Source of the DNA: a bacterium
GTDB taxonomy: Bacteria > Patescibacteriota > Minisyncoccia > UBA6257 > 02-FULL-45-10c
NCBI GenBank assembly: GCA_030646915.1
Contig: JAUSKT010000019.1
Coordinates: 1-50,820 of the forward strand
Direction: 5' to 3'
Length of the DNA: 50,820 bases
The translations under genes and the position numbers were made by a program. The stretch's first letter is position 1. The number at the start of each line of letters is the position of its first letter. Below, in pieces: positions 9,042-35,243 of this stretch. The notes beneath the pieces are model-generated. The model did not search any database and had not been told where the DNA came from. It was given only the letters and a program-made list of their open reading frames with translations.

Positions 9042-10523
9042 ATGCATTTGCACGATTTAACAATTAAAAAGTTTCATGATGGGCTTTTAAAAAAAGAATT
9101 TTCCGCTTTGGAAATGACTCAAAGTTTTTTTGACTGGATTGAGAAAAGAGATAAAGAGGTTGGCGCTTATTTAAGTTTAAATAAAGATTTAGCCGTTAGA
9201 CAGGCAGAAGAAACAGATTTAAAAATTGCTAAAAATATGCCGGTCAGTATGATGGCTGGTGTGCCAATGGCTATTAAAGACAATCTTTTAATAGAAGGTT
9301 TGCCGGCAACTGCCGCTTCAAAAATTTTAAAAGATTATACTGCCAGCTACGATGCGACGGTGATTAAGAAATTAAAATCCGCAGGAGCAGTTTTTCTTGG
9401 AAAAACTAATATGGATGAATTTGCTATGGGTTCTTCTACGGAAAATTCCGCATTCCAGAAAACTAAAAATCCTCATGATTTAACCCGGGTTCCCGGCGGT
9501 TCTTCTGGCGGATCAGCTGCAGCAGTGGCATCGCATATGGCAGTGGCAGCGCTTGGTTCAGATACCGGCGGATCAATTAGGCAGCCGGCGGCTTTTTGCG
9601 GAGTAGTGGGGTTAAAGCCGACTTACGGGGCAGTTTCTCGTTTTGGGGTAATTGCGATGGCTTCCAGCTTGGATCAGATCGGGCCGTTTACAAAAACCGT
9701 TGAAGATTCCGCGATTTTATTTAAAGAAATCCTTGGCCAGGATGGTTTAGATTCGACCAGCGTCAATGCTGATTATGGCGAGGAATTATTAAATCCAAAA
9801 TTAGAAAATATTAAAAAATTAAAAGTCGGCATTCCGGAAGAATACTTTGTGGAGGGATTAGATAAAGAAGTTGCGGAAAAGGTAGATGAAGCGATTAAAG
9901 CCATTCAAAGCCTGGGCTTGGAAATTAAAAAAATAAGTTTGCCTAATACCAAATACGCTCTGTCGTGCTATTACATTATTATGCCAGCAGAAGTTAGTTC
10001 TAATTTAGAAAGGTTTGATGGCATTCGCTATGGTACCAGGCAGAAAGCGGAAAATTTGTTAGAATTATATAAGAAGAACCGCGAAGCTGGATTTGGTGCT
10101 GAGTCGAAAAGAAGAATTCTGCTGGGAACTTTTGTGCTTTCTTCCGGATATTACGATGCTTATTATGCCAAAGCCCAGAAAGTCCGCCGGCTGATTAAAG
10201 AAGATTTTGACAGGGCATTTAAGGATGTGGATGTGATTTTAACTCCAGTTACTCCTACATTGCCGTTTAAAATCGGAGAAAAAACCAGTGATCCTTTGTC
10301 TATGTATTTATCTGATATTTTTACTATTCCAGTGAATTTAGCCGGACTTCCCGCAGTATCTATACCCATTAAGTCAAATGTCAAAGGTCCCGCCGAAGGC
10401 GAGGCTCGCCAAGGGCGGCAAATGTCAAAAGATTTGCCGGTTGGATTCCAATTAATCGGCAAGCCGTGGCGGGAAGCAGATATTTTAGGAATAGGGCAAT
10501 ATTACGAAAAATTATCCCGTTAG
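9042..10523 (+). CDS. gatA: Asp/Glu-tRNA amidotransferase subunit A
   Basis: IKDN, KTNMDEFAMGSS, PGGSSGGSA, GSDTGGSIRQP amidase signature. Confidence 0.98.
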   Translation: MHLHDLTIKKFHDGLLKKEFSALEMTQSFFDWIEKRDKEVGAYLSLNKDLAVRQAEETDLKIAKNMPVSMMAGVPMAIKDNLLIEGLPATAASKILKDYTASYDATVIKKLKSAGAVFLGKTNMDEFAMGSSTENSAFQKTKNPHDLTRVPGGSSGGSAAAVASHMAVAALGSDTGGSIRQPAAFCGVVGLKPTYGAVSRFGVIAMASSLDQIGPFTKTVEDSAILFKEILGQDGLDSTSVNADYGEELLNPKLENIKKLKVGIPEEYFVEGLDKEVAEKVDEAIKAIQSLGLEIKKISLPNTKYALSCYYIIMPAEVSSNLERFDGIRYGTRQKAENLLELYKKNREAGFGAESKRRILLGTFVLSSGYYDAYYAKAQKVRRLIKEDFDRAFKDVDVILTPVTPTLPFKIGEKTSDPLSMYLSDIFTIPVNLAGLPAVSIPIKSNVKGPAEGEARQGRQMSKDLPVGFQLIGKPWREADILGIGQYYEKLSR

Positions 10524-10636
10524 AGACAACCAAACTATGTTTAATGAATATTCAAAATTAGTATTTATAATTAATCGTCAGGAGCAATTTAGGCGGCCGG
10601 GCTACGGTCATCTAAAGATGACCTGTCTCTAACGGG
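10516..10636. mobile_element. MITE-like element, same TIR family as 6181-6284
   Basis: atcccgttagagaca / tgtctctaacgggat; left TIR contains the gatA TAG, right TIR abuts ATG 10637. Confidence 0.8.
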
Positions 10637-11278
10637 ATGGCAGGATTTAAAAAACCAGAAGTTAGCAGCAAACCATCAGGATTGGATTTATTGATTATTG
10701 GAGTTTTAATGGCCTCGTTTATTTCAGTAAGCGGAATTTTAGCTTTTTTATTGACGCCTCTGACAATTTTATACAGGATAAGAGATTTCTTTGCGCCTTT
10801 TTTTGAAAAATATCTTTTAACTTTTGAAATCAGCGCTATATTGCTTTCTATACTTTTTATTTGGGGAATTATTTATATTATTGATAAGACTAAGTATTTT
10901 GAACTTAAAAAAGAGCAGTTTTTGGATATTTTAGGGAAAGGCCATGTTTCCAAGCGCCGTTCCTTAAAGGGCTGGAAGCAGATTTTAGAAAGATTAAAAT
11001 CTTCCGAGCAAAATAGCTGGAAGCTTGCGATTTTGGAAGCTGATCATATTTTAAATGAAATTTTGAAAATGTCAGGTTATCTTGGTCCCAAACTGGAAGA
11101 TAAATTGGATTTGATTACTGCAGCCCAGATTTCAAATATAGACGATATAAATAAAGTCCATAAAATAAGGGATAAGATTGCTACTGACCCAGCTTTTCAG
11201 ATTACAAAAGAAGAAGCTGAGCACATTATTTCAGTTTATAAAAAAGCTTTCGTGGAATTGAATTTAATCAGAGAATAA
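10637..11278 (+). CDS. Hypothetical membrane protein
   Basis: Two TM segments, then a helical domain WKLAILEADHILNEILK..GY.G. Confidence 0.75.
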   Translation: MAGFKKPEVSSKPSGLDLLIIGVLMASFISVSGILAFLLTPLTILYRIRDFFAPFFEKYLLTFEISAILLSILFIWGIIYIIDKTKYFELKKEQFLDILGKGHVSKRRSLKGWKQILERLKSSEQNSWKLAILEADHILNEILKMSGYLGPKLEDKLDLITAAQISNIDDINKVHKIRDKIATDPAFQITKEEAEHIISVYKKAFVELNLIRE

Positions 11279-11314
11279 ATTAGTATTTGAGCAGTTCTTA
11301 ATAAAGGATATTAA

Positions 11315-11656
11315 GTGAGTCTTAAGCGGGGCTCAGAAGAAGAATTTGAAAAATGGCGGTTAAAAATGCTAAATGCCAAGAGAACGAACATTTTAGAAAG
11401 TTTCGCAGAAGTCTGCCAGTTGCTGGAAAGCGGTTGTTTAGAAGAGAAAGTGGCGGAAAAATTAGCCAAAGTTAAATTAAAAACAAAAATTAAGCTTAAG
11501 GATTTAGGATATCTTGCTCTTGCCATCTCGGCATTTCACGAAAGAGGAGCCCCCTTTAGATTTAATTGGAATAAATTTTGGCAAGGCGAAGATTGGGCTT
11601 TGGATATGGAGTTATCTGAAAAAAGAGTTTTTGATCCATATGGCGAAAAAGAATAA
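11315..11656 (+). CDS. Hypothetical protein
   Basis: 113 aa, GTG start after AAAGGA, followed by hairpin atcccc-attac-ggggat plus T-run. Confidence 0.55.
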   Translation: MSLKRGSEEEFEKWRLKMLNAKRTNILESFAEVCQLLESGCLEEKVAEKLAKVKLKTKIKLKDLGYLALAISAFHERGAPFRFNWNKFWQGEDWALDMELSEKRVFDPYGEKE

Positions 11657-11711
11657 TCCCCATTACGGGGATTTATTTTTTTAGAAATTAGTGATAAAGT
11701 TTATTTAAAAT

Positions 11712-11771
11712 GCGGTGGTAGCTTATCACCGCCTACGGCGGGACCCCGCCAACGGCGGTGGGCGGCGTGAG
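11712..11771 (+). repeat. tRNA-Asp 5'-end look-alike plus GC palindrome cluster
   Basis: gcggtggtagctta matches tRNA nt 1-14 at 13/14; followed by ccgcc-tac-ggcgg and ccgcc-aac-ggcgg, then TATAAT at 11772. Confidence 0.65.
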
Positions 11772-11786
11772 TATAATTAAAATATT

Positions 11787-11860
11787 GCGGTAGTAGCTTA
11801 GCGGCCTAAAGCGCCTCCCTGTCACGGAGGAGACCGTGGGTTCAAATCCCATCTACCGCG
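11787..11860 (+). tRNA. tRNA-Asp(GTC)
   Basis: Acceptor gcggtag/ctaccgc; anticodon arm cctcc-ctGTCac-ggagg; T arm gtggg-ttcaaat-cccat; G73; CCA not encoded. Confidence 0.95.
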
Positions 11861-11867
11861 CAAAATT

Positions 11868-11891
11868 AAAACTAGCTTTAAGCTAGTTTTT
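11868..11891 (+). terminator. Terminator after tRNA-Asp
   Basis: aaaactagct-tta-agctagtttt. Confidence 0.7.
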
Positions 11892-11951
11892 CTTTGCTTA
11901 AACATCAATAATCCCTTAATATGAAATCAGTTTTTTGAATCAACAAAATTC

Positions 11952-12377: not shown

Positions 12378-12384
12378 CGGGGTT

Positions 12385-12840: not shown

Positions 12841-12866
12841 ATATATTTTCTATTATAGTATGAAAC

Positions 12867-12942: not shown

Positions 12943-12949
12943 CGCAAAA

Positions 12950-14163: not shown

Positions 14164-14169
14164 TTTATG

Positions 14170-14313: not shown

Positions 14314-15477
14314 ATGTTAGAAGATTTAAAAAAACTAAAAACTGAAGCTCAAAAATTCTTAAAAGAAGTTAAAGATTCCAAAGAATTGGAAAATTTGAGA
14401 GTTAAATATTTAGGCAGAAAAGGGGAGCTGAATAAATTTTTTGATGTTTTAAAAAGCCTGTCTCTTGAAGAAAAGCGGAAATTTGCGCCTCCGCTTCAAA
14501 AATTAAAAAAAGAATTGGAAGAAATTTTGGATAAGAAAATTTCTGAACTTAGCCAATCTTTAAAATCTTCCGGCGGATTGGATATTACGATGCCAGGAAA
14601 GAAAATGTCCATGGGGCATTTGCATCCGCTGACAATTGTTGAAAAAGAAATCAGAGAAATTTTTAAAGCAATGAATTTTTCTGTAGTTGAAGGTCCGGAA
14701 GTGGAATCCGAATACTATAATTTTGACGCTTTAAATATTCCCAAAAGCCATCCAGCAAGAGATATGTGGGATACTTTCTGGTTACGAAGTAACCAGAAAC
14801 AATTGACAATTGACAATAAACAAATAACCAGCGGTAAAAGGTCAAATGTCAAAGGTCAAATGTTATTAAGGACTCATACCAGCCCAGTTCAGATCCGATA
14901 CATGGAACAGCATAAGCCCCCATTTCAAATAATTGTTCCCGGCAGAGTATTTCGTTTTGAAGCTACTGATGCCTCCCATGAAATCAATTTTTATCAGGTT
15001 GAGGGCTTAATGGTCGGGAAAGATGTGAATTTAGCGAATTTTAAATTTGTCATCCAGGAATTTTTTCAGAGGCTTTTTAAGAAAAATCTTAAAATCCGGC
15101 TTCGGCCAAGTTACTTTCCATTTGTTGAGCCCGGCTTAGAAGTGGATGTGCAATGCATCAGATGTGAGGGAACTGGAAGATTAGACGGCCCCGTAAAATC
15201 TGCTTCGCAGATCACGGGGCTCACTCAAAAGGGCTTGCCACGAGGGGGCGAAGCCCCTTTTCGTGGCTGTAATCTTTGCAAGGAATCCGGTTGGCTGGAA
15301 GTAATGGGCGCTGGAATGGTTCATCCGAGAGTTTTTGAGTCCGCGGGATATAATCCAAAAGATTTGCAAGGATTTGCTTTTGGTTTGGGATTAGAAAGAA
15401 TCGCCATGATTAAATATAATATTCCAGACATCCGCTTATTTTATTCCGGAGATTTAAGATTTATAAGACAGTTCTAA
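14314..15477 (+). CDS. pheS: Phenylalanyl-tRNA synthetase alpha subunit with two in-frame insertions
   Basis: GHLHP, HPARD, LLRTHTS, FPFVEP, GFAFGLGLER; ATG 14314 preferred because ATG 14272 lies within the MITE. Confidence 0.97.
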   Translation: MLEDLKKLKTEAQKFLKEVKDSKELENLRVKYLGRKGELNKFFDVLKSLSLEEKRKFAPPLQKLKKELEEILDKKISELSQSLKSSGGLDITMPGKKMSMGHLHPLTIVEKEIREIFKAMNFSVVEGPEVESEYYNFDALNIPKSHPARDMWDTFWLRSNQKQLTIDNKQITSGKRSNVKGQMLLRTHTSPVQIRYMEQHKPPFQIIVPGRVFRFEATDASHEINFYQVEGLMVGKDVNLANFKFVIQEFFQRLFKKNLKIRLRPSYFPFVEPGLEVDVQCIRCEGTGRLDGPVKSASQITGLTQKGLPRGGEAPFRGCNLCKESGWLEVMGAGMVHPRVFESAGYNPKDLQGFAFGLGLERIAMIKYNIPDIRLFYSGDLRFIRQF

Positions 15478-15484
15478 TAATAGA

Positions 15485-17482
15485 ATGAAATTTTCTTTTT
15501 CTTTAATTAAAAAATTAGCGCCTGGCAAATACACCAAATCCGAATTGGTTGAAAAGTTTAATTTGCATTTGTTTGAAACCGTAGATTTAGGAGGCGATGC
15601 TTTGGAAATTGTAGTTTCGCCGAACCGTTTCAGCGATGCTGCGTCTCATCTGGGGATTGCGATGGAAACAGCGGCTATTTTTGGAACTAAATTATCAGAT
15701 CCTAATTCGGGCGAGTTGAAATTTAATTCAAAAAGTCCGGGAGTTTTTCGGGTAAATATCCAGGATAAGAAATTAAGCAGGCGGTATTTGGCTGGTTATG
15801 TTTCCGAGGTTAAAATTGCTTCTTCTCCGATTTGGTTGAAAGAAATTTTGGAAACCTGCGGGCTTCGTTCAATTAATAATGTCGTTGATATTATGAATTA
15901 TGTAATGCTGAAAACCGGCCAGCCAATGCATGCTTTTGACGCGGATAAGGTTTCCGGAGGAATCGTTGTTCGGAAAGCAAAAAAAGGAGAAAAAATTGAT
16001 ACAATTGATAACCAGACTTTTTCTTTAGATAAAGAAATGCTGGTGATTGCGGACGCTAAAAAGAATCTGGCGATTGCCGGCATTAAGGGCGGAAAAAATA
16101 GTGAAATTGATTCTAATACCAAAAGAATTTTGGTTGAATCAGCTAATTTTGACAGCGCCAGCATTTATGACACTTCCAAAAAATTAGGATTGCGGACAGA
16201 CGCTTCGGTGAGATTTTCTCACAATCTTAGTCCAGAACTTGCTGAATTGGGAATAAAAACTGCCTTGGATTTGCTCCAAAAATTTGCCGGAGGGAAAATT
16301 CATCCCTATATTGATGTTTATCCAAAAAAACAATCTAAAAAATTATTACGGCTGGATATTGATAAAATGGCAAGTTTAATCGGGAAAGATTTAAAAGAAA
16401 AAGAAGTTGTAAATTTACTGAGCCAGCTGGGCTTTTCCGCCAAAGGCGGATTCGCCTCAGGAGGAAAAAAGCAAGGCAAGAATATAGAAGTTCCGGCTTT
16501 GCGGACGGACATTAACGATTCGGAAGATTTAGCAGAAGAGGTGGCGAGGCTGATTGGTTACAATAATTTAATTGCAAAGCCTCCTGCGGTTGCTTTAGGA
16601 TTCGCAGCCGAAGAAGAATTAATTTTGCTTAAAGACAGAATTAGGAATTTTTTGGCTGGAGCGGGGTTTAGTGAAGTTTATAATTATTCACTAATTTCCA
16701 AAGAAGATTTGGCCTTGGGGCCGGTAAAGATTTTTGGAAGCGGAGATGGCGTATTACTAGCAAATCCTATGAGCCGGCAATTGGCAGTGTTAAGAGACAG
16801 CCTTTCGCCTGGATTACTGAAAAACTTAAAAGATAATTTAAGATTTTTTGAAGAAGTCAGAATTTTTGAAATTGGCAATGTTTTCAGCCAGTCAAAAACC
16901 GGAACAGACGAAAAAACTCTTTTGGGGATTGCATTGGCGTCAAAAAATGCAGTTTTAGAATTGAAGGGATTACTAGATATTTTATTGGAGAAATTGGGGT
17001 TGGTGGATTATTTTTTGCCGGATTTAAATTATGACAATAAGCTTTTGAAAACTGGGGAGTCTTTAAGAATTGAAACTGGCGATCACAAAGTTTTGGGGTA
17101 TATGGGGTCGGTCCATGGAGTTAAAGGCGCAATTTTAGAATTAGATCTGGGAAAATTATTAAAATTAGTTGACGAAGAAAAAGAATACGAACCGCTTTCA
17201 AAATTTCCTTCCGTAATGAGGGATATTTCGATTTTAGCAGATAATCAAATTAGAGTTGGGGAAATTCTGGCAATGATTCAACGCATTAGTCTGAAATTAG
17301 TAGAAGATGTAGATTTGATTGATTGGTATCAAGATGAAAAATTAGGAGATAATAAAAAAAGTTTAACCTTTCGGATTGTTTTTCGCGCAGAAGACAGGAC
17401 TTTAACTGACCAGGAAGTGGATCGGGAAATGGCTGCAATTAATCAAATTTTAATTAATAAGTTTGATGTAGAATTAAGGTAA
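15485..17482 (+). CDS. pheT: Phenylalanyl-tRNA synthetase beta subunit (short form)
   Basis: PNR.D, INNVVDI.NYVM...GQPMHAFD, DLAEEVARL.GY, C-terminal FDX-ACB; 665 aa. Confidence 0.96.
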   Translation: MKFSFSLIKKLAPGKYTKSELVEKFNLHLFETVDLGGDALEIVVSPNRFSDAASHLGIAMETAAIFGTKLSDPNSGELKFNSKSPGVFRVNIQDKKLSRRYLAGYVSEVKIASSPIWLKEILETCGLRSINNVVDIMNYVMLKTGQPMHAFDADKVSGGIVVRKAKKGEKIDTIDNQTFSLDKEMLVIADAKKNLAIAGIKGGKNSEIDSNTKRILVESANFDSASIYDTSKKLGLRTDASVRFSHNLSPELAELGIKTALDLLQKFAGGKIHPYIDVYPKKQSKKLLRLDIDKMASLIGKDLKEKEVVNLLSQLGFSAKGGFASGGKKQGKNIEVPALRTDINDSEDLAEEVARLIGYNNLIAKPPAVALGFAAEEELILLKDRIRNFLAGAGFSEVYNYSLISKEDLALGPVKIFGSGDGVLLANPMSRQLAVLRDSLSPGLLKNLKDNLRFFEEVRIFEIGNVFSQSKTGTDEKTLLGIALASKNAVLELKGLLDILLEKLGLVDYFLPDLNYDNKLLKTGESLRIETGDHKVLGYMGSVHGVKGAILELDLGKLLKLVDEEKEYEPLSKFPSVMRDISILADNQIRVGEILAMIQRISLKLVEDVDLIDWYQDEKLGDNKKSLTFRIVFRAEDRTLTDQEVDREMAAINQILINKFDVELR

Positions 17483-17906: not shown

Positions 17907-19865
17907 ATGGCAAAAAATAAAGAAGAAAAATCAAAAAAAAATCCTTCAGTGGCGGGGCAACCATCTTATACCGCCAAAGATATTTATGTTTTAACGGGTT
18001 TGGATCCAGTCCGAAAGAGGCCGGGTATGTATATCGGCTCTACCGGAGTAGAGGGCCTGCATCATTTAATCTGGGAAGTAGTAGATAATTCTATAGACGA
18101 AGCAATGGCCGGATACGCAAAAAATATCCGGGTAGATTTATTGCCGGGGAATAAAATCAGCGTGGAAGACGACGGCCGCGGCATTCCAGTGGAAACCCAC
18201 AAGCAAACTAAGAAATCGGCCTTAGAAACGGTCTTGACCACATTGCATGCTGGCGGAAAATTCGGCGGTGATTCCTATAAAGTTTCCGGCGGCTTGCACG
18301 GAGTTGGCGTTTCGGTGGTAAATGCCTTATCGATTTGGCTTAAGGTGGAAGTTTGCCGTGATGGAGATATTTGGGCGCAGGAATACGAAAGGGGAAAGCC
18401 TAAATATAAAGTTAAGAAAGTTGGAAAATCTAAAACGACTGGCACTAAAGTAACTTTTATTCCCGATAGTGAAATTTTCGCAAAAATTGAATGGAATCTA
18501 AAAACTATTATTGATCATCTTAGGCAGCAAGCATTTTTAACCAAAGGAGTAAAATTAGAGATTGTGGACCAGCGGGAATTGCCGGCTAATTATCAAGGAT
18601 TTTATTTTGACGGCGGGCTTTTATCTTTTATTAAATATTTAAATCAAACTGAAAAGCCGCTGCAAGAAGATCCTTTTTATGTCCAAAAGGAATATGAAAA
18701 AATAGATGTGGAAATTGCTTTTTTATATAATGATGAATTAGAAATGAGAGAATTGAGTTTTGCGAATAATATTTACACTCCTGACGGCGGAATGCATTTG
18801 ACTGGTTTTCGCTCCGCATTAACCAGAACTTTAAATGATTACGCTGGAAAAGAAGGCTATATTAAGGGCAAAGATGAGGGTCTTACCGGTGATGATGTAA
18901 GAGAGGGGCTTTCGGCAATTATAGCCGTAAGGCTACGAGAGCCGCAATTTGAAGGCCAAACCAAGGCCAGGCTTGGCAACCCTCCGGCAAGAACTGCGGT
19001 AGAAAGCGTAGCTGGAGAAGCTTTAAAGGATTGGCTTGAGCGCCACCCGGCTGATGGAAGGAGAATTATTGAAAAGTGCCTGCTTGCGGCTAAGGCCAGA
19101 AAGGCTGCCAAGGCGGCGAAAGACACAGTGCTTAGAAAGGGCGTTTTAGACGGCCTAACTTTGCCAGGAAAATTAGCAGATTGTATTTCTAAAGATCCGT
19201 CGGAATCCGAATTATTTATAGTTGAGGGCGATAGCGCAGGAGGCAGCGCCAAACAAGGGCGGGATCGGCGGACTCAGGCAATTTTGCCGTTAAAAGGCAA
19301 GATTTTAAATGTGGAAAAATCCAGGATTGATAAAATGCTTTTAAATAAAGAAATTAGAGCTTTAGTTGTTGCCTTAGGTACCGCAATCGCGGAATCTTTT
19401 GACCTCACTAATCTTCGCTACCATAAAATTATTTTAATGACCGACGCGGATGTGGATGGCGCGCATATCAGGACTTTGCTTTTGACTTTGCTTTACAGAT
19501 ATTTACAGCCGTTAATCACTAATGGGCATGTTTATATCGCCCAGCCTCCGCTTTATAAAATTCAAAAAGGAAAAGAATCCCAATATGTTTATAGTGATAA
19601 TGAAAAAGAAAAATTGATTAAAAAACTTTCTTCCGGAAATAGCGATAAAATTAATATTCAGCGGTATAAAGGTTTGGGAGAAATGAATCCAAGCCAGCTT
19701 TGGGAAACTACAATGGAACCGGCAAATAGGGTTTTAAGGCAAGTAAAAGTTGCGGATGCGGTTGCGGCAGATAAGCTTTTTGATATTTTAATGGGCCAAG
19801 AAGTTGAGCCACGGAGGAATTTCATCCAAGCCAGGGCATTATTGGTTAAAAATTTAGATATTTAA
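17907..19865 (+). CDS. gyrB: DNA gyrase subunit B
   Basis: VRKRPGMYIG, EVVDNSIDE, EGDSAGG, PLKGKILN, TDADVDG, QRYKGLGEM. Confidence 0.97.
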   Translation: MAKNKEEKSKKNPSVAGQPSYTAKDIYVLTGLDPVRKRPGMYIGSTGVEGLHHLIWEVVDNSIDEAMAGYAKNIRVDLLPGNKISVEDDGRGIPVETHKQTKKSALETVLTTLHAGGKFGGDSYKVSGGLHGVGVSVVNALSIWLKVEVCRDGDIWAQEYERGKPKYKVKKVGKSKTTGTKVTFIPDSEIFAKIEWNLKTIIDHLRQQAFLTKGVKLEIVDQRELPANYQGFYFDGGLLSFIKYLNQTEKPLQEDPFYVQKEYEKIDVEIAFLYNDELEMRELSFANNIYTPDGGMHLTGFRSALTRTLNDYAGKEGYIKGKDEGLTGDDVREGLSAIIAVRLREPQFEGQTKARLGNPPARTAVESVAGEALKDWLERHPADGRRIIEKCLLAAKARKAAKAAKDTVLRKGVLDGLTLPGKLADCISKDPSESELFIVEGDSAGGSAKQGRDRRTQAILPLKGKILNVEKSRIDKMLLNKEIRALVVALGTAIAESFDLTNLRYHKIILMTDADVDGAHIRTLLLTLLYRYLQPLITNGHVYIAQPPLYKIQKGKESQYVYSDNEKEKLIKKLSSGNSDKINIQRYKGLGEMNPSQLWETTMEPANRVLRQVKVADAVAADKLFDILMGQEVEPRRNFIQARALLVKNLDI

Positions 19866-24517: not shown

Positions 24518-26047
24518 ATGAAATATTTTCCCACAATTGGTTTAGAAATTCACTCTGAATTAAAAACCGCAACTAAGATGTTTTGCGATTGCCCGAATGA
24601 TCCGGAAGAAAAACATCCCAATATTAATGTTTGCCCGATTTGCCTAGGCCATCCGGGAGTTTTGCCGACTATCAATAAAAAAGCGATTGAATCAATGATT
24701 AAAATCGGTTTTGCGGTTAATGGTGAGATTAATCCAAGTTTTAAATTTGACCGGAAAAATTATTTTTATCCGGATTTGCCGAAAGGCTATCAAATTTCCC
24801 AATATGATTTGCCATTAGTAAGGGGCGGAGAACTGGATATAACTGCGAGGCTTAAGTCTTCAAAAATTGTTAAGTTGAACAGGGTTCATTTAGAAGAAGA
24901 TGCCGCGAGGCTTATTCATGAGCCGAGTCCCGACTTTGCGTCGGGAGAACAATATGGCAGCTCCGACGCCCAAAAGGGGTCGGAGCGATTAGCGGGTACG
25001 CTAATCGATTTTAATCGAGGCGGGCTTCCCCTTATGGAATTAGTGTCCGAACCGGATATGCATAGCGTAGAGGAGGCAGTGGCATTTGCTAAAGAATTAC
25101 AGCTAATTTTGCGCTATTTAGAGGTTTCTGACGCGGATTTAGAACATGGCCAGATGCGGTTTGATGCCAACGTTTCTCTTAGTGAAGATAAGTCCTTGGG
25201 GACGAAAGTTGAGATTAAAAACCTTAATTCTTTCGGAGCTTTAGAGCAGGCGATTAATTATGAGATTAAAAGGCAGAGCGAAATTTTAGATTCTGGGGAA
25301 AAAGTAAAACAAGAAACTCGCGGTTGGGACGATATTAAAAAGAAAACTGTCAGCCAGCGTTCCAAGGAAGAGGCGCATGACTACCGTTATTTTCCAGAAC
25401 CGGATTTGCCGCTTTTGATGGCTTCAGATTTTGATTTAAAAAATTTGAAATTGTCCGTTCCAGAATTGACTAATCAAAAACGAAAAAGATTCAAAGAGCA
25501 ATTTAAGCTTAATGATGATCAGGTTAATATTTTAGTTGAAGACCGAAAAGAAGCAGAGTATTTTGAAAATGCTGTTTCAGAATTGGAAGCGGATACAGAA
25601 GTCAAAAGTGGAAAGTTGAAAGTTGAAAAGGTTCAGTTATTATTTAATTATTTAAATAGCGATTTAAAAGGATTGATGAAGGAACAAGAATTGGATTTTG
25701 ACAGCTTGAAAATTACTCCGGAAAATTTTGCGGATCTTATTGAAATGGTTTCTATAAATAAAATTTCCAGTCGCACAGCCAAAGATTTATTAGTTAAAAT
25801 GGCGGATTCTGGAGTTGACCCGGATACTTTGGTAAAGAGTGAGGGATTGGGTCAAGTTTCTGATTCGGCAGTATTAGAAGAAGTGGTTCAGCGGGTGCTG
25901 GCGGCAAATCCTGCGGCGAGAGCTGATTTTAAAAAAGGAAAAATGAATGCTGTGCAGTTTTTGATTGGCAAAGCAATGGCAGAATTAAAAGGCAGGGGAA
26001 ACCCAGCAGTTTTACGTAGTCTTTTTGAAAAGCATTTGATTTCATAA
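24518..26047 (+). CDS. gatB: Asp/Glu-tRNA amidotransferase subunit B
   Basis: IGLEIH, FDRKNYFYPDLPKGYQISQ, HLEEDA, DYRYFPEPDL. Confidence 0.98.
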   Translation: MKYFPTIGLEIHSELKTATKMFCDCPNDPEEKHPNINVCPICLGHPGVLPTINKKAIESMIKIGFAVNGEINPSFKFDRKNYFYPDLPKGYQISQYDLPLVRGGELDITARLKSSKIVKLNRVHLEEDAARLIHEPSPDFASGEQYGSSDAQKGSERLAGTLIDFNRGGLPLMELVSEPDMHSVEEAVAFAKELQLILRYLEVSDADLEHGQMRFDANVSLSEDKSLGTKVEIKNLNSFGALEQAINYEIKRQSEILDSGEKVKQETRGWDDIKKKTVSQRSKEEAHDYRYFPEPDLPLLMASDFDLKNLKLSVPELTNQKRKRFKEQFKLNDDQVNILVEDRKEAEYFENAVSELEADTEVKSGKLKVEKVQLLFNYLNSDLKGLMKEQELDFDSLKITPENFADLIEMVSINKISSRTAKDLLVKMADSGVDPDTLVKSEGLGQVSDSAVLEEVVQRVLAANPAARADFKKGKMNAVQFLIGKAMAELKGRGNPAVLRSLFEKHLIS

Positions 26048-26072: not shown

Positions 26073-26291
26073 ATGGGATTATTTGAAACATCCAAAATGT
26101 ATAAAAAAGGCAGTCCGGAAGTTACTAAAGAAGATAAAGATAGAATGGAAAAAGCCCGTCTTGAGCGTCTTGCTAATGCGCCAGAATCAAGAAAGGCAAT
26201 AGAAAATTTGCAGAAAGAAGTTGATAAATTGCCAAATGAATTAGTAGAGGAAGATCGAAAAGCTTGGAGAGAAGCAGAGGAAAGAGGCTAA
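26073..26291 (+). CDS. Small hypothetical protein
   Basis: 72 aa, charged; TACAAT upstream; terminator downstream. Confidence 0.5.
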   Translation: MGLFETSKMYKKGSPEVTKEDKDRMEKARLERLANAPESRKAIENLQKEVDKLPNELVEEDRKAWREAEERG

Positions 26292-26292
26292 T

Positions 26293-26324
26293 AAAAATCT
26301 CCCGCCAGTTGGCGGGGGATTTTT
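26293..26324. terminator. Bidirectional terminator
   Basis: aaaatctcccgcca-gt-tggcgggggattttt between convergent genes. Confidence 0.75.
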
Positions 26325-26325
26325 A

Positions 26326-27561
26326 TTAGTTTCGGTTTCCTATTTCTTTTTTTATAATTTCAGTCAGGTTATCTATGGCCATTTCTTTTAAATCTCCTTT
26401 TGTATAATGCCGGACAGCAACGGTATTATTGCCAGCTTCTTTTTCCCCGACTATCAAAAGATAGGGGACTCTTCGGATTTCTGCTTCCCGGATTTTTTTG
26501 CCGATAGTGGCGTTATCCGTATTAAGTTTTACTCTAATCCCAGATTTTTTTAATTCCTTAAGGACTTTTTCGCCATATTGATTTTGTTTGTCTGTGATAG
26601 TCAAAATTTCCGCTTGAACTGGCGAAAGCCAAAGCGGAAGTTTGCCGTCAAAATGCTCAAGAAGAACGCCAAGGATTCTTTCAAAAGATCCGAAAACTGC
26701 CCTGTGGATTACCCATGGCATTTGTTTTTTGCCGTTTTCATCAATATAAGAAACTTCAAATTGTTTTGGCAGCATTACCAAGTCCAGTTGCGCAGTTCCT
26801 AACTGCCAATCGCGGTCTTGAGAATCTTTCAGGTGAACTTCAATTTTGGGACCGTAAAAAGCGCCCTCACCTTTTTCAATTGTGTATTTTAATCCGGAAT
26901 TTTTAAGCGCGTTTTCCAAAGCATTTTCTGAGCTGTCCCAGTCTTCTTTTTCCCCAAGGGCTTTTTCCGGCCTAGTGGCAAGCACGTAGCGGGGTTCAAA
27001 ATTAAAAAGCGCATAAAATTTTGCAATCACTCTCAGGATTTTTTCCACTTCCTCTTCTACTTGGTCCGGCCGGCAATAAATATGGGCATCATCCATTGTA
27101 ATTTGCCTTACGCGGAATAACCCGCCAAGAGTTCCAGAGCGCTCATTTCTATGCAATCTTCCTATTTCCGCTAAGCGTAATGGCAAGTCTTTATAGCTTC
27201 GGATAGTGGAATTATAGACATAAGTGGATTCCGGGCAGTTCATTGGCTTTACCACCAAAGTCTCATTTTCATCAGTCGGATTTTTAAACCAAAACATATT
27301 TTCCCGGTAATGGTCCCAATGGCCGGATTTTTCGAAAACTTCTTTTTTAACCATAATCGGAGTGGAAATTTCCATGTAACCTTCCTCTTCATTCATTTCC
27401 CTGGCAAATTTTTCCAGTTCTTTAAAAATCACCATTCCGTTCGGGTGCCAGAATGGCGCGCCAGGAGCAATTTCTTGGAAAGAAAAAAGATCCAGTAATT
27501 GCCCGAGTTCCCGATGGTCTCGGCCTGGTTTTTGCGGGGAATTTTCTTTTTTATTAGGCAT
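26326..27561 (-). CDS. thrS: Threonyl-tRNA synthetase, catalytic and anticodon-binding domains only
   Basis: Starts near RDHR.LG; KPMNCP, HRNE.SG, GAFYGPK, IHRA.FGS.ER; 411 aa. Confidence 0.97.
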   Translation of the reverse strand: MPNKKENSPQKPGRDHRELGQLLDLFSFQEIAPGAPFWHPNGMVIFKELEKFAREMNEEEGYMEISTPIMVKKEVFEKSGHWDHYRENMFWFKNPTDENETLVVKPMNCPESTYVYNSTIRSYKDLPLRLAEIGRLHRNERSGTLGGLFRVRQITMDDAHIYCRPDQVEEEVEKILRVIAKFYALFNFEPRYVLATRPEKALGEKEDWDSSENALENALKNSGLKYTIEKGEGAFYGPKIEVHLKDSQDRDWQLGTAQLDLVMLPKQFEVSYIDENGKKQMPWVIHRAVFGSFERILGVLLEHFDGKLPLWLSPVQAEILTITDKQNQYGEKVLKELKKSGIRVKLNTDNATIGKKIREAEIRRVPYLLIVGEKEAGNNTVAVRHYTKGDLKEMAIDNLTEIIKKEIGNRN

Positions 27562-29782: not shown

Positions 29783-32700
29783 TAATTCTTTTACTGTATC
29801 GCAGATTAATTTCGGTTCGCCGTTCCGCCAGGACATTTTTCCGGTTACCATTACAATTTTATTTTCCTGCCAAAGCGGAAGAGTTTTTGCGAGCGTGTCG
29901 GCAAAGACGATAACTTCCATGGAGTCATTTAAATCTTCTATTTTGGCAAAAGCCATTGCTTGGCCGAGCTTGGTATTTATTTTTTTAATTTGGGAAACTA
30001 CTCCGGTAATCTTGGGCTTCGGCCCGTATTCGGAGTCATAATCTTTAGAAAGAAAATGTTTGATCGGCTGGCTGCCTGATTTTTCAATTATATCTTTATG
30101 TTGGCTAAGCGGATGGTCAGAAACATACAATCCAAGCAACTCTTTTTCCCAGGCGAGTTTTTCCTGCTGAGTAGCAGGCGGAGCGGGTTTTAATTTAAGC
30201 GCATTGTGGGAAACAGAGCTCGCTCCAAAAAGCGAAGCTTGGTTGCTTAATTTTGCTTTCCGGACTGTGCTTGTAAAATTTATAATTTCTTCAATATTGG
30301 AAATTCCAACATTCCTTTCAATTCCCATTGAGTCTAGCGCCCCGCATTTTAATAAGCTTTCAAAAGATTTTTTATTCAAATCTTTATGTTCAACCCGTTC
30401 TAATAAATCCACTAAATTTTTAAACGGGCCGCCTTTTTGCCTTGCGCTGACAATCGCGTCAATTACATTTCCGCCGACATTTTTAATAGCCAGAAGCCCG
30501 AATCGGATAGCTTTCTCTTCCGGAACGAAATTAGCCACGCTTTTATTTATATCCGGAGACAAAACCGCAATGCCGGCTTTTTTTACTTCTTGAATTAGGA
30601 ATGCAATACGTTCCACATCTCCGGAGTCTGAATTAAATAAGCTGGTATAAAATTCTACTGGGTAGTGGGCGCGAAGATAAGCCGTGCGATAGCCAATCAT
30701 TGCGTAACAGGCGGCATGCGATCGGTTAAATCCATAGCGGTCAAAAGGCTCGATTAAAGTCCAGAAGTGTTCGGCAATTTCTTTTTTAACTCCGTTTTTT
30801 ATCGCGCCATTGATAACTTTTTCTTTTTGTTCCTGCATCAGCGATTTTATTTTCTTGCCGACAGCTTTTCGGAGGATATCCGCTTCTGCCAGTGAAAATC
30901 CAGAAAGCGCTCTGGCGCCAGCCATCAGCTGCTCCTGATAGATCATTATCCCGTAAGTATTTTTTAAAACCGGCTCTAGTAGGGGATGAAGATAGGACAC
31001 TCTTTCTTTTCCTAATTTTCTTTTCATATATTCCGGAATAAGTTCCATAGGCCCCGGGCGATAGAGCGAGATCATGGCGATGATATCTTCTAGCTCAGTC
31101 GGTTTCAATTCTTTAAGGTAGCGCCGCATGCCGCTGGATTCTAATTGAAAAACTCCAGTGGTATCGGCTAATTGTAGAAGCTCAAAAGTTTTTTTATCAT
31201 CCAAAGGAATTTTACTGATATCAATTTTTTCTCCATTAATATCTTCAATTAGGCGCAAAGTATTTTCTATGATAGTAAGGTTTTTTAATCCTAAGAGATC
31301 TATTTTTAAAAGGCCGAGATCTTCAACACTGTGCATTTCAAATTGGGTGATAATGGTATTTTCATCTTGCGGCGCGTATTGGATCGGCATATATTCAGTG
31401 AGCGGTTCTTTTGCTATAACAGTTCCGCAAGCATGGACAGACGCATGGCGGACTACTCCTTCTAAATTTTTTGCTGTATTTATAAGTTTTTTAGCATCTT
31501 CATTATTTCGGTAAAGATCTCTTAATTCCACGACATCTTTAAGGCATTGGTCCAGCCAGCCTTCTTTCATGCCTTGGGTTGGATTAAAAGGAATAAGTTT
31601 GGCGATTTGGTCGCAAAAGCCGTAGCTTAATCCCATTGCCCGCCCGGCATCACGGATTGCGGCTCGCGCCGCCATAGTTCCGAAAGTAATAATATGGGCA
31701 ACCCGGTCTTTTCCATATTTTTCTTCTAAGTATCCAAAAACTTCATCGCGCCTTGCATCCGCTATATCTATATCAATATCCGGCATTTGAATTCTTTCTG
31801 GATTTAAAAATCTTTCAAAAAGGAGATTATATTTTAGCGGGTCTAAATCAGTAATATTTAAAATATAAGAAATGATGCTGCCCGCTGCCGAACCTCTTCC
31901 TGGCCCGACTACGATTCCGCGGTCTTTCGCCCAGTTTATAAAATCCTGGACAATTAAGAAATAATCGGCAAAGCCAGTTTTTTCGATAACGCCTAATTCA
32001 TACTCAATGCGGCTTTTTACTTCTACAGTTAGTTCTGGATATCGGATAGAAGTGCGTTCTTCGGTAAGTTTTCTTAAGAAAGAATTAGCTGTTTCATTTT
32101 CCGGTAAGGTAAATTCCGGCAATTGTGTTTTCCCTAATTCTAATTCAAAGTTGCAGGCCTCGGAGATTTTAGCGGTATTTTCAAGCGCTTCTGGAACATC
32201 TTTGAAGAATTCAGCCATTTCTTCCGGCGAGCGCATGGAAAAATCGTCGTCTTTTAAGGTAAGGCGGTCTTTATCAGAAAGCTTATTTCCGGTTTGCACT
32301 GCCAATAAAATGTCGTGATATTCTGCGTCTTCTTTTTTTACATAATGGATGTCTTGCGTAGCCACTAATGGAATTCCGGTTTCTGAAGAAAGTCTTTTTA
32401 ATCCTTCATTTGCTTTAATAGTCGGTGCGATGCCTGGATGATGCCCGATTTCCAGATAGAAATTATCTTCTCCGAAAATTTCTCGGTATTCCAAAGCAGC
32501 CTTTTTTGCTTCAGAAAAATTATTATTTAAAATTAATTTCGGAATTTCTCCTGTTATGCAGGCAGAAAGAGCAATCAGCCCTTCATGATATTCCCGAAGC
32601 AGTTTTTTATCCATTCTCGGCTTGTAATAAAAGCCTTCCAGGTGGGAGATGGTTACTAATTTAATTAAATTTTTCCAGCCAGTTTTATTTTTAACAAGAA

Positions 32701-32971
32701 GGATTAAATGATGATACCGGTCATCGCCGCTATTTTCTTTTAACTTATGGTCTTTGGGCGCGATGTAGGCTTCTACTCCGAGAATCGGTTTTATTCCGGC
32801 TTTTTTTGCCTTTTTATAAAATTCTACGGCGCCATAGAGGGCACCGTGATCAGTAATCGCTAGTGAATCCATTCCTAATTCTTTAGTTCGACTTACCAAT
32901 GCATCAATTTTCCCAAGTCCGTCAAGAAGTGAATAATGAGAATGTGTATGTAAATGGGTAAAGCGAGGCAT
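29780..32971 (-). CDS. dnaE: DNA polymerase III alpha subunit
   Basis: HLHTHSHYSLLDG PHP, GRGSAAGS, MPDIDID, YGFNRSHA, C-terminal OB fold. Confidence 0.98.
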   Translation of the reverse strand: MPRFTHLHTHSHYSLLDGLGKIDALVSRTKELGMDSLAITDHGALYGAVEFYKKAKKAGIKPILGVEAYIAPKDHKLKENSGDDRYHHLILLVKNKTGWKNLIKLVTISHLEGFYYKPRMDKKLLREYHEGLIALSACITGEIPKLILNNNFSEAKKAALEYREIFGEDNFYLEIGHHPGIAPTIKANEGLKRLSSETGIPLVATQDIHYVKKEDAEYHDILLAVQTGNKLSDKDRLTLKDDDFSMRSPEEMAEFFKDVPEALENTAKISEACNFELELGKTQLPEFTLPENETANSFLRKLTEERTSIRYPELTVEVKSRIEYELGVIEKTGFADYFLIVQDFINWAKDRGIVVGPGRGSAAGSIISYILNITDLDPLKYNLLFERFLNPERIQMPDIDIDIADARRDEVFGYLEEKYGKDRVAHIITFGTMAARAAIRDAGRAMGLSYGFCDQIAKLIPFNPTQGMKEGWLDQCLKDVVELRDLYRNNEDAKKLINTAKNLEGVVRHASVHACGTVIAKEPLTEYMPIQYAPQDENTIITQFEMHSVEDLGLLKIDLLGLKNLTIIENTLRLIEDINGEKIDISKIPLDDKKTFELLQLADTTGVFQLESSGMRRYLKELKPTELEDIIAMISLYRPGPMELIPEYMKRKLGKERVSYLHPLLEPVLKNTYGIMIYQEQLMAGARALSGFSLAEADILRKAVGKKIKSLMQEQKEKVINGAIKNGVKKEIAEHFWTLIEPFDRYGFNRSHAACYAMIGYRTAYLRAHYPVEFYTSLFNSDSGDVERIAFLIQEVKKAGIAVLSPDINKSVANFVPEEKAIRFGLLAIKNVGGNVIDAIVSARQKGGPFKNLVDLLERVEHKDLNKKSFESLLKCGALDSMGIERNVGISNIEEIINFTSTVRKAKLSNQASLFGASSVSHNALKLKPAPPATQQEKLAWEKELLGLYVSDHPLSQHKDIIEKSGSQPIKHFLSKDYDSEYGPKPKITGVVSQIKKINTKLGQAMAFAKIEDLNDSMEVIVFADTLAKTLPLWQENKIVMVTGKMSWRNGEPKLICDTVKEL

Positions 32972-33073
32972 ATCAATTATTTTATAGGACTAATCTCATT
33001 AATCCAATTGTCTCAGTGGATAACTTTTAACAAAAATAAAAATCCCCGCAATTTTGCGGGGAAGTCTTGATGT

Positions 33074-34363
33074 TTAGTCGTCGCTACTCTTAAGGGTGGT
33101 TTTCACATTAATTAATTTTATCTTTTTCAGCAGAAACTTTCCTTTTCTTAGAATTTGAACTTCTACTTCTTTGCCGGGTTCATAGAGGAGGTTTATTTTG
33201 GCAATATCACTGACTGTTTTTACGATTTTGCCGTCATATCTCTTAATAATATCCCCGGTTATTAGCCATTCGAAAATTTCATTAAGAGAGGAAATCATGG
33301 GGATTGCGCTTTTTTTCTGCAAAACCACGGGTCCTTCCGCATTTATTGAGTCTAATCCCATTTCTTTTAAATGGGGCATTGATAAGGACTCGCTATCTTT
33401 TATTCCATAAGGGAAATCTGATAATTCAATTTCTCCGCCCTTCAATAATCTAGGAAGGATAATTTTTACATCATCGATCCCAGTAAAAAAATGGATTTGC
33501 TCAATGTTTATAATCGGATGGTAAGGCCATCCAAAATCACAAAGCCCGAGCACTTCTCCTTTTAAATTGAGAATTGGCCCGCCGGAATTTCCAGGAAAGA
33601 TTTTTGCTTCCGTAGCCAGCAGTTCTGGCCCTAAATAATATGGCGGGGCGGTTTTTTTGCCGATTTTTCCGCTAGTTAGAAATTCATTAATTGAATATGG
33701 GCCGCCGATTACTATAATGTCTTCACCGGTCTTTGTCTTATCAGATTTACCGAGCGGAGCAAAAACTTTTGCCGCGAAATTCACATCTTTAAATTTCAGG
33801 AGGGCGATATCCATAGTTGTTGATTTAAATGAAGTGTATCCAACAACCTCGACTGCTTTTCTTAAAACTCTATTATGAGTTTTAGAAAAATGCGCCCAAA
33901 TTTCCACTTCTTGTTTTTTGGCTAAATCTTCCACGCAGTGCCCGTCGGTTAAAATATAATGAGTGCTGATAACAATCCCATAGCAGCGGTAGCCGCCTTC
34001 TTTTTTACTAAGTAATGAAGGATCTTCGTCCGGTCCAAGATCAGTTTTTTTATAGAAAGCATGCAGGCTGACGGTGTAAAGCCGCGCCTGATTGAATAAT
34101 TGATTCGCGGAAAAGATTTTTCTTTTCTGGGTTTTTTCTGATTTAGAAATAACTTCTCTTATTTCCTTTTCTAGTTCTGGATCTATTTTGGGTTTTAAGT
34201 TTATTTCTAGTTTAAAGATGGGGATTTCAATTGTTGAATATTTTGAAGACATCAGATTGCCAATGCCAAATAATAAAACCAGGCTTGTCATAAAAAGCAA
34301 ACTCTTCATTTCTTGCTCCGTTTTGAAAGTTCGCGGAAAGAAAAAGACTCCGGGTTTTGCCAT
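33074..34363 (-). CDS. HtrA/DegP-like trypsin serine protease with PDZ domain
   Basis: TDGHCV, DIALLK, PGNSGGP triad motifs; GDII...DG PDZ; true start may be ATG 34309. Confidence 0.88.
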   Translation of the reverse strand: MAKPGVFFFPRTFKTEQEMKSLLFMTSLVLLFGIGNLMSSKYSTIEIPIFKLEINLKPKIDPELEKEIREVISKSEKTQKRKIFSANQLFNQARLYTVSLHAFYKKTDLGPDEDPSLLSKKEGGYRCYGIVISTHYILTDGHCVEDLAKKQEVEIWAHFSKTHNRVLRKAVEVVGYTSFKSTTMDIALLKFKDVNFAAKVFAPLGKSDKTKTGEDIIVIGGPYSINEFLTSGKIGKKTAPPYYLGPELLATEAKIFPGNSGGPILNLKGEVLGLCDFGWPYHPIINIEQIHFFTGIDDVKIILPRLLKGGEIELSDFPYGIKDSESLSMPHLKEMGLDSINAEGPVVLQKKSAIPMISSLNEIFEWLITGDIIKRYDGKIVKTVSDIAKINLLYEPGKEVEVQILRKGKFLLKKIKLINVKTTLKSSDD

Positions 34364-34450
34364 ATGCTCTTCTCAAAGATCGCCCCCCGAAATAATCGGA
34401 GAGTAATCCTTAGGGATAGAGTCGACAGACCAGGAGTCTTTGCCCTTTCC
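34335..34450 (-). promoter_or_regulatory. Structured segment, probable 5' leader of the protease gene
   Basis: ggaaag..aaagactcc (34335-34351) pairs with ggagtcttt..ctttcc (34433-34450), enclosing small hairpins. Confidence 0.45.
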
Positions 34451-34536
34451 TTTCTAGGATTAATTAAGTATATCATATTATATTTAGGGAGCAAGCTAAT
34501 TGCTTTTTAAATAAGTTTTTGCTATTGTATAAAAAT

Positions 34537-34722
34537 ATGGGAGGAGTACCAGTTAAACATCGTTCTAAATCAGCTGTTGGCCATACCAGGTCTCATTTGG
34601 CGTTGAAAAAGATTCCGTTGAATGTCTGCGCGAATTGCAAGAATCCGGCTTTGCCGCACAGGGTTTGTATTAATTGCGGTTCTTATAGAAGTTCTGCGAT
34701 TCCAAAGCAAAGTAAAAAATAA
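34537..34722 (+). CDS. rpmF: 50S ribosomal protein L32
   Basis: VP....SKS....RSH, CxxC...PHRVCxxCG.Y; ATG 34537. Confidence 0.95.
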   Translation: MGGVPVKHRSKSAVGHTRSHLALKKIPLNVCANCKNPALPHRVCINCGSYRSSAIPKQSKK

Positions 34723-35243
34723 TGGCAACTCGACAACTTTGCAGATCAATTGTTCTTCAATCTCTTTATGAGTGGGATTTTTATAAGTCCCGCCGTGCTG
34801 ATTTAAAAAATAAAAATAAAGAAGGCGGGATCCCGCCAGAGGCGGGACAACCTGATTTATTCGAAATTTTAGAAAGAAATCTTTTGGAATTCGGACCGGG
34901 CATTGATGAGCCGGATTTTGCAAAGAAATTAGCCCAGGGGATTATGGACCACAAAAAAGAAATTGATATTATTATTGAAAAAGCCGCGCCCGATTGGCCG
35001 TTAGCGCAGATTGCCGTTATTGACCGGAATGCTTTGCGAGTTGGCTTGTATGAGCTTTTATTTGCGGACCGCAATGAAGTTCCCCCGAAAGTTGCTATTA
35101 ATGAAGCAATTGAAATTGCTAAAAATTATGGAGGGCCGAATTCTGGAAAATTCATCAATGGAGTTTTGGGCACAATTTACAGGGAAATAGGCGAACCGGG
35201 CAGGGACGATAAAGCTCCGGAGAAAATAGTAAATAGTAAATAG
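34722..35243 (+). CDS. nusB: Transcription antitermination factor NusB
   Basis: R...LQ.LYE, DR..LR, VPPKVAINEAIEIAK.YG, FINGVL. Confidence 0.97.
   Translation: MATRQLCRSIVLQSLYEWDFYKSRRADLKNKNKEGGIPPEAGQPDLFEILERNLLEFGPGIDEPDFAKKLAQGIMDHKKEIDIIIEKAAPDWPLAQIAVIDRNALRVGLYELLFADRNEVPPKVAINEAIEIAKNYGGPNSGKFINGVLGTIYREIGEPGRDDKAPEKIVNSK

Follow-up and report, generated by a model that had tools for sequence, protein, structure and literature searches.

Why do AT-rich genes for essential enzymes of an ultra-small bacterium contain short GC-rich islands that are translated along with the rest of the protein? The question is raised by contig JAUSKT010000019.1 of assembly GCA_030646915.1, a member of the Patescibacteriota (Minisyncoccia; UBA6257; 02-FULL-45-10c). 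The window analyzed here is this entire 50.8-kb contig (C14; 50,820 nucleotides [nt]), and the assembly (G000) comprises 599 kb in 22 contigs at 39% G+C and is rated 77% complete. The relatives in our library all have genomes of 0.5-1.3 Mb, and the sequencing runs that contain this DNA are groundwater metagenomes only. An earlier note on the window had proposed that short GC-rich hairpins are inserted in frame in its housekeeping proteins, by analogy with the Rickettsia palindromic elements (RPEs) translated within proteins. Alignment to orthologs bears out the core of the proposal and the analogy, with clean in-frame inserts in PheT, GatA, and NusB. We conclude, with modest confidence, that the PheT insert is a copy of a tiny nonautonomous palindromic element of the kind represented by RPEs and by dimers of repetitive extragenic palindromes (REPs), and that the GatA and NusB inserts and an intergenic hairpin probably are as well.

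The gene names given in the earlier note were upheld by Pfam. The genes and the four copies concerned are as follows.

9042-10523: gatA, GatA-type amidase
15485-17482: pheT
17907-19865: gyrB
34722-35243: nusB
10389-10418: GC double hairpin of divergent sequence, 30 nt, within gatA; its stems are CCCGCC/CTCGCC, its loops GAA and AAG, and its translation PAEGEARQGR
11728-11759: intergenic 32-nt twin hairpin (ACCGCC-TAC-GGCGGG, AC, CCCGCC-AAC-GGCGGT), 28 nt upstream of tRNA-Asp
16436-16465: canonical 30-nt twin hairpin in a loop of the PheT B5 domain, read as SAKGGFASGG
34788-34847: 60-nt composite insert in nusB, with a TCCCGCC/GGCGGGA stem split by 29 AT-rich nt and then a complete TCCCGCC-AGA-GGCGGGA hairpin

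In-frame hairpin inserts in PheT, GatA, and NusB

Orthologs were taken from 40 relatives and aligned at both the protein and the DNA level. The PheT copy differs from the family consensus given below at two positions, both within the second unit, and its ten residues, as proposed, form a clean insert that is absent from all 29 relatives and from all 73 metagenome orthologs. The 22 pheT loci of the same family show an exact 10-residue gap in 20 cases and a 9-residue gap in 1, with relative G014 exceptional. Cutting out 16436-16465 leaves ggc ttt / aaa aag caa ggc aag, which corresponds to the empty site of relative G008, ggttttaaaaag (ggt ttt aaa aag aaa ggt aaa); the 30 nt therefore entered between TTT and AAA, and nothing was duplicated. 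We note that G014 carries a different, 7-residue insert at the same loop, derived from a CCCCG-CAAA-CGGGG hairpin (L066).

In the source metagenome, the contig spans the PheT site without differences. The depth bin of the PheT element reaches 1026 versus tens nearby, and contigs diverge at its edges (12 at position 16433 and 15 at 16468), indicating that the element is carried by many other genomes of that community. A search with PheT for a near-identical strain among the metagenome contigs returned none, with best matches of 62-74% identity. At the intergenic copy, 16 community contigs match up to position 11761 and diverge beyond it; a noncoding relative had been placed at 11729-11758, and the twin hairpin found there is 32 nt long.

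The GatA insert is likewise real, although its coordinates had been placed one base off. It lies in a loop between VSIP and LPVGF that varies in length among relatives, and PAEGEARQGR is lacking in all 28 relatives that cover the site. Removal of the 30 nt restores SNVKGQMSK, which aligns to SNVSGQISS of G012, and comparison with the solved structure 3H0L places 16 extra residues of the query at the turn that holds the insert.

In NusB, 27 relatives read FYKQK-DL where this genome and G007 have 19 additional residues; the residues unlike those of relatives are SRRADLKNKNKEGGIPPEAGQ. The in-frame insert is thus genuine, and only G007 among 28 relatives has it, but the proposed length of 27 nt does not hold, the actual insert being 60 nt with a net gain of 19 amino acids. 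In an AlphaFold model (mean predicted local distance difference test [pLDDT] score of 87.8) the NusB fold is kept and the insert falls at the junction of helices 1 and 2 with lowered model confidence: the AT-rich part lengthens helix 1, and the hairpin-coded part is modeled as a loop at residues 33-45 (pLDDT of 65 for block 31-40). The expectation that the peptides occupy surface loops is supported in part, in that the NusB helix junction with its low pLDDT and the gap of GatA against 3H0L both lie between conserved elements. As a side observation, nusB of G007 is broken across contig ends (the end of C18 and the start of C13) exactly at the shared insert, which fits an assembly broken by a repeat.

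The GC-rich hairpin islands exceed chance. The window holds 5 CCGCC-N3-5-GGCGG sites versus 0.09 expected, a count reached in 0 of 100 shuffles. A genome-wide count gave 19 such sites in 599 kb; they form the commonest inner stem among the GC-rich 5-bp hairpins, while the reverse order, GGCGG...CCGCC, occurs 3 times. These GC-rich hairpins number 337 in all, versus 112-159 in five first-order Markov simulations (a 2- to 3-fold excess). Summed over 41 genomes, CCGCC-N3-GGCGG also occurs at 337 sites versus 55 for the reversed control, with enrichment in many relatives, where the sites are frequently paired 15 nt apart. The GC-rich hairpins of the original CCGCC-N3/4-GGCGG proposal are real, apart from the gyrB stretch discussed below, but the unit is a 30-nt twin hairpin and not a single one. 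An architecture-only scan of the genome for twin hairpins found 93 versus 47-68 under the null, with AT-rich pseudo-hairpins dominating. When folded as single-stranded DNA, the four copies fare far better than shuffled sequences.

PheT copy: -10.3 kcal/mol, z -3.4
GatA copy: -10.7 kcal/mol, z -2.3
Intergenic copy: -13.8 kcal/mol, z -3.8
NusB copy (62 nt): -16.6 kcal/mol, z -5.3
gyrB stretch discussed below: -0.6 kcal/mol, z +1.0

A twin-hairpin family in many phyla

The consensus obtained from fetched paired sites is TCCGCC-N3-GGCGGA-TCCGCC-N3-GGCGGA, 30 nt that are palindromic around a central GGATCC. Each unit is a 15-nt hairpin with a 6-bp TCCGCC/GGCGGA stem and a 3-nt loop, and the two strands read alike. 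The exact pattern occurs in at least 126 stretches of genome contigs. Labels of metagenome-assembled genomes among the matches listed include Kaiser-, Portnoy-, Lipton-, Doudna-, Moran-, Campbell-, and Saccharibacteria, Omnitrophota, Kiritimatiellae, Ignavibacteriota, Planctomycetales, Chloroflexota, and others. Mis-binned DNA of the candidate phyla radiation does not explain this breadth, since Ignavibacteriota contigs of 1.6 Mb carry the element. In a survey of 401 genomes of the order that allowed two or fewer mismatches, 141 genomes held 559 copies, with a maximum of 24 per genome, and a reversed control gave 0 throughout. An adaptor or assembly artifact was rejected, given that the loops vary, that the long contigs come from many projects, and that the source contig bridges the PheT site; a dif/Xer site was rejected because there are many copies per genome. 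Phages are not evident as a vehicle, with only 2 exact copies in viral contigs.

These figures bear on the proposal that the hairpins arise locally, through errors of replication or repair (template switching or hairpin-primed synthesis) at AT-rich slippery sites, their likeness reflecting a stable GC triloop outcome. NRA triloops are a stable type, and the loops here favor that type; unrelated GC hairpin inserts also fill the same loops in different relatives (pheT of G014, gatA of G016, and pheS). However, 24 specified bases are identical at 126 or more places across phyla versus about 0.002-0.2 expected by our own estimate from database size, the reversed control is 0 in 401 genomes, and the inserted bases are not copies of their flanks. 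We regard this explanation as very improbable, and for the canonical family an on-the-spot origin is close to refuted.

The anatomy of the element was described from a cross-phylum sample of 80 copies, which also supplies the flank and frame figures. Loop 1 is purine rich (2.68 of 3 positions; AGA 18, AAA 17, GGA 13) and loop 2 pyrimidine rich (0.34 purines of 3; TTT 21, TTC 12, TCT 11, TCC 11), meaning that the two units are inverted and the whole is two-fold symmetric. The flanks carry T at -2 in 69 copies and at -1 in 52, and A at +1 in 47 and at +2 in 61. These flanking bases are already present in empty sites and so reflect a target preference, not part of the insert. In all four canonical filled and empty pairs (PheT and three sites in genus g3, each a junction of a T-run and an A-run) exactly 30 nt were gained and no target was duplicated. 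Stems are kept paired through compensatory changes: among the two-mismatch copies listed, 22 of 26, counted by eye, are compensatory pairs within one stem, of 8 kinds; one of these, CCCGCC/GGCGGG, is the stem seen in the intergenic and NusB copies.

For 25 copies the frame stays open over 60 codons or more to either side; 23 of these are read as S-A-x-G-G-S-A-x-G-G (phase 0) and 2 in the Arg-rich frame, with none in the Pro-rich frame. It had been noted that insert lengths are multiples of 3; this holds, yet for genic and intergenic copies alike, since two 15-nt halves make up the unit.

The presence and absence of copies among close relatives needs recent gain together with either precise loss or repeated gain. 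One genus g3 copy (site A) is in G016 and missing from its sister species G013, and hence is a recent gain. Another is in G013 and G016, decayed in G020, and absent from G002 and G018, a pattern on the tree that implies precise loss or two gains at one site. The NusB insert is common to G000 and G007 only, and a copy in the gene for IF-2 to G000 and G008 only, while G007 groups with G009 (Shimodaira-Hasegawa-like approximate likelihood ratio test support of 95), which lacks the NusB insert. Since exclusive sisterhood of G000 with both G007 and G008 is impossible, at least one of these patterns reflects precise loss, repeated gain, or lateral replacement; approximately unbiased tests (p = 0.17 for G000 with G007; p = 0.024 for G000 with G008) are compatible with either gain or loss for NusB and IF-2.

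Further copies exist in this genome, as the idea of a family required, in IF-2, PolX-like, and phosphohexomutase-like genes, in addition to those in hundreds of other genomes. The IF-2 copy lies at the N terminus (C6:103683, FPPKADQPLVEK) with 3 mismatches to the consensus, and besides this and the PheT copy no site in the genome falls within 5 mismatches. The PolX-like gene holds a variant with the same 30-nt architecture, and comparison with G008 and G007 shows its 30 nt to be cleanly inserted; both this gene and the phosphohexomutase-like gene show exact 10-amino-acid gaps in relatives. A half-decayed TCTCCC/GGGAGA twin hairpin was also observed at C6:12372-12401 of G000, in a 153-amino-acid membrane-like open reading frame (ORF). 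G000 contains few, mostly decayed copies and one recently duplicated divergent copy of the GatA type, and with no candidate mobilizer found the element looks inactive there.

Two stretches of the window were set aside. A decayed copy had been suspected in gyrB; that stretch does not fold into a hairpin and belongs to a low-complexity N-terminal tail that differs in length in nearly every relative. A supposed family relative at 26293-26324 is part of an ordinary bidirectional terminator, which folds at -9.8 kcal/mol (z -4.2) and has the GC-rich stem-loop, T-run, and gene-end position of an intrinsic terminator; its hairpin at 26301-26316 was rejected as a member, the sole tie being a CCCGCC stem. 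The wider suggestion that the family generates terminators fails as well, canonical flanks being a T-run 5' and an A-run 3', the opposite of a terminator. These and the other features named in this section are as follows.

17941-17962, + strand: stretch of the GyrB N-terminal tail (PSVAGQ), no hairpin
26287-26330, both strands: palindrome resembling a bidirectional intrinsic terminator, between convergent genes
C6:5709-5738 of G000: perfect TCTCCC/GGGAGA twin hairpin in the PolX-like gene, read as SPYGRSPVGR

A host function, be it that of an RNA hairpin acting on mRNA stability, processing, or pausing of translation, of a site bound by a dimeric DNA-binding protein, or of a signal for uptake, would account for the two-fold symmetry that suits a dimeric binder, for the compensatory changes that maintain stems, and for the existence of intergenic copies. 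Against it, the number of copies is small and irregular, from 0 to 24 per genome with 260 of 401 genomes lacking any; old copies decay (those in IF-2 and PheT and the G020 copy), the host genes share nothing, and the orientation of the flanks is again the reverse of a terminator's. Uptake sequences occur at densities far above 0-24 copies per genome, on which ground a DNA uptake sequence was rejected. Overall we consider a host function improbable.

Repeat arrays and routes of spread

The element core is frequently embedded in 7-base repeat arrays. At 77 cross-phylum sites, lag-7 self-similarity beside the core is 0.33 and 0.31 versus 0.25 farther off, and deleting exactly 30 nt restores the 7-nt phase (0.39-0.40 versus about 0.28). 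The GatA core sits within such an array, and GTCAAAN arrays without a core are present at other genomic sites, such as 14833-14863 in pheS.

10372-10431: 60-nt block of GTCAAAN heptamer flanks and the GatA core, identical at 60 of 60 nt to C15:17410-17469
14797-14863: imperfect hairpin formed by a heptamer array in pheS, of the GTCAAAN kind that flanks the GatA core, translated as QKQLTIDNKQITSGKRSNVKGQM

The second copy of the 60-nt block lies inside the phosphohexomutase-like gene. At that site the heptamer arrays of four relatives lack the core and are built from a different unit in each, and G000 has exactly 10 residues more. Gene conversion, with copying from one look-alike heptamer array to the other, best explains the identical pair. 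Arrays of 7-base period (GTCAAAN, ACAATTG, TAATTAC, and others) were also noted within and between genes at 8086-8118, 8950-8978, 25605-25628, 35224-35309, and 14797-14863. The pheS array, an imperfect hairpin with two heptamer arms, fills a loop that varies in both length and sequence among nearly all relatives. The GatA and PheT loops are recurrent insertion hot spots; in other relatives they hold other GC hairpins, tandem duplications, and heptamer arrays (G016 [L045], G018 [L047], G026 [L051], G023 [L042], and G014).

Such arrays raise the possibility that the element spreads without transposition, through homologous recombination or gene conversion between look-alike arrays and allele replacement after DNA uptake, as a passive hitchhiker or with weak drive. 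The identical 60-nt copies lie within arrays that relatives have core-less, and heptamer units are seemingly genome specific across loci (GCGACAA recurs at two of the G009 sites examined, one in the PolX-like and one in the phosphohexomutase-like gene, and it also fills the loop of gatA in G023). The NusB composite is in G000 and G007 though absent from G007's partner G009, and no mobilizer was found in G000. The PheT site and the three genus g3 sites, in contrast, have no array homology past TTT/AAA, and the same 30 nt occur in unrelated genes of many phyla with mutually unrelated flanks. We therefore view spread by recombination alone as unlikely.

The preferred reading of a mobile palindromic element starts from the exact 30-nt insertion between a T-run and an A-run, without target duplication, that is shown above. 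Insertion might take place on single-stranded DNA through a hairpin-recognizing enzyme acting in trans, for which the best candidate would be a tyrosine transposase of the HUH (histidine-hydrophobic-histidine) class resembling those of IS200 or of REPs (REP-associated tyrosine transposases [RAYTs]). Genic copies would persist only where the protein tolerates ten extra residues, and the surviving frame would mostly be Ser-Ala-x-Gly-Gly twice, presumably a flexible loop.

The link between the element and RAYT-like genes across the order is weak. Among 41 relatives' genomes, those with RAYT-like ORFs have more hairpin sites (median of 18 versus 4.5; Mann-Whitney p = 0.0004), and the element occurs in 54 of 112 genomes with a Y1_Tnp hit versus 87 of 289 without (odds ratio of 2.2, p = 0.001, kinship ignored). 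The relatives' RAYT-like ORFs, of 230-270 amino acids, score 35-45 bits versus the 80-bit cutoff of NF047646. Adjacency of the element to a RAYT gene was looked for at 9 loci and not found.

Several results weigh against a mobile element of this kind. No PF01797 (Y1_Tnp) or RAYT-like gene was found in G000, at 77% completeness. None of six RAYT-like genes examined is bracketed by TCCGCC hairpins, though one has a hairpin ~260 nt upstream. Pairs that respect kinship, underpowered at n = 5, gave 2 in the same direction, 0 opposite, and 3 ties (p = 0.5). A Y1_Tnp hit is missing in four of the six richest genomes (24, 20, 17, and 13 copies), and 58 genomes with Y1_Tnp have no element. No variant with the 30 nt left out was seen at the window's sites in two groundwater DNA runs, where the data for this check of population variants were contigs, few of them bridging. 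The consensus carries neither of the tags, GTAG and CGTC, that mark the REPs described so far. More than 8 mismatched positions, or spacers, separate the GatA, NusB, and intergenic copies from the consensus, to which they are joined by architecture only, and GC hairpin inserts of unrelated sequence (pheS, G014 pheT, and G016 gatA) leave room for a more general process. We accordingly regard the GatA and NusB copies as divergent stem variants or composites whose membership in the family is probable.

A broader proposal, which we advance only tentatively, is that coding DNA is a setting for which the 30-nt palindrome is "pre-adapted": it is divisible by 3 in length, seldom brings in a stop codon, and from either strand encodes a Gly/Ser/Ala linker in one frame. 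Such an element might cross phyla without a dedicated transposase of its own, use T/A junctions and 7-base arrays as landing pads, exit precisely, and act as a general maker of ten-residue loops in minimal-genome bacteria.

One further GC-rich insert in the window, missed by the earlier note, differs in sequence from the family.

15172-15267: 96-nt (32-amino-acid) insert of GC hairpins in pheS, unique to this genome, in the zinc-knuckle loop that separates the two CxxC motifs

This pheS insert is built of two other GC-rich hairpins and is absent from the zinc-knuckle relatives in a 29-row alignment, a few of which have shorter, different inserts in the same loop. Additional perfect GC-containing palindromes occur within long ORFs at 39380-39403, 37690-37706, 24928-24946, and 7585-7601, one of them a 24-nt palindrome with the halves CTTCAGCTGGCA and TGCCAGCTGAAG. 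An open frame of more than 2562 amino acids leaves the end of the contig (window positions 43134-50819), with a local G+C of 0.43-0.44 that is above the rest of the window.

Significance and comparison with known systems

Our literature searches, supplements aside, found no description of the 30-nt twin hairpin, and the family of widespread REP- or RPE-like mini-insertions is apparently undescribed. It would rank with the smallest DNA units that look mobile, and as one routinely absorbed by proteins. It accounts for GC-rich islands and for 10-residue "SAxGGSAxGG" loops in essential enzymes of ultra-small bacteria, and it is able to break assemblies and to confuse alignments and orthology calls. 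The copies also amount to a natural experiment in which protein loops tolerate insertions, and precise gain and loss across phyla without target duplication or an obvious enzyme pose a clear mechanistic question.

Elements of the IS200/IS605 type and their miniature derivatives have hairpin ends, insert at a short specific target without duplication, can be excised precisely, and are moved by an HUH tyrosine enzyme in trans; they are also strand specific, with distinct left and right ends and guide sequences. In a comparison of features only, the element described here also has hairpin ends and inserts without duplication, beside a 5' flank rich in T (at -2 in 69 of 80 copies), but it is two-fold symmetric and has no room for distinct ends or guide sequences. 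It is unlike miniature inverted-repeat transposable elements and other class II elements in having no target-site duplication in any of the four filled and empty pairs, and the phase test at 77 sites agrees.

Members of RPE-1 are roughly 100-150 bp long, and the peptides that RPEs encode lie at surface loops. As with RPEs, housekeeping genes in a reduced genome here carry palindromic DNA in frame, and it is tolerated as an extra peptide. The 30-nt element is nevertheless far shorter than RPE-1 and occurs in many phyla, while RPEs are confined to one genus. According to passages of Di Nocera et al. (2013; PMC3733652), RPE-4 and RPE-6 are CGTC REPs and RPE-1 is longer; compared by tag only, the element differs from the former two in lacking CGTC.

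The same passages describe REPs as GTAG- and CGTC-tagged palindromes, with close inverted dimers and with copies inside palindromic targets; some intragenic REPs encode 20-30 residues, and the CGTC superfamily is without a dedicated transposase (PMC3733652). Like REPs and the REP doublets that form hairpins (REPINs), the element is a small GC-rich palindrome in the 20- to 40-nt range with inverted paired units, REP pairs lying 1-2 bp apart, and some copies are wholly within ORFs and some in palindromic targets (PMC3733652, same passages). Unlike the REPs described there, it has T-run and A-run flanks instead of a GTAG or CGTC tag (PMC3733652). Its stems are only 6 bp and its two units are fused at GGATCC; its range covers many phyla, not a single genus or family; long open frames hold about a third of the copies sampled (25 of 80); and no RAYT gene is found in G000 and none flanked by the element in relatives.

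The element also resembles the GC clusters of yeast mitochondria, as treated in parts of Wu and Hao (2015; PMC4478555), in being a GC-rich hairpin mini-element of an AT-rich genome. The yeast clusters show substitutions concentrated in loops, merging and shuffling of units, and spread by recombination at conserved flanks, and their mobilizer is unknown (PMC4478555, same parts). In contrast to those clusters, described there as mostly intergenic and with a putative AG target duplication, the element reported here has no duplication, and many of its copies are translated (PMC4478555).

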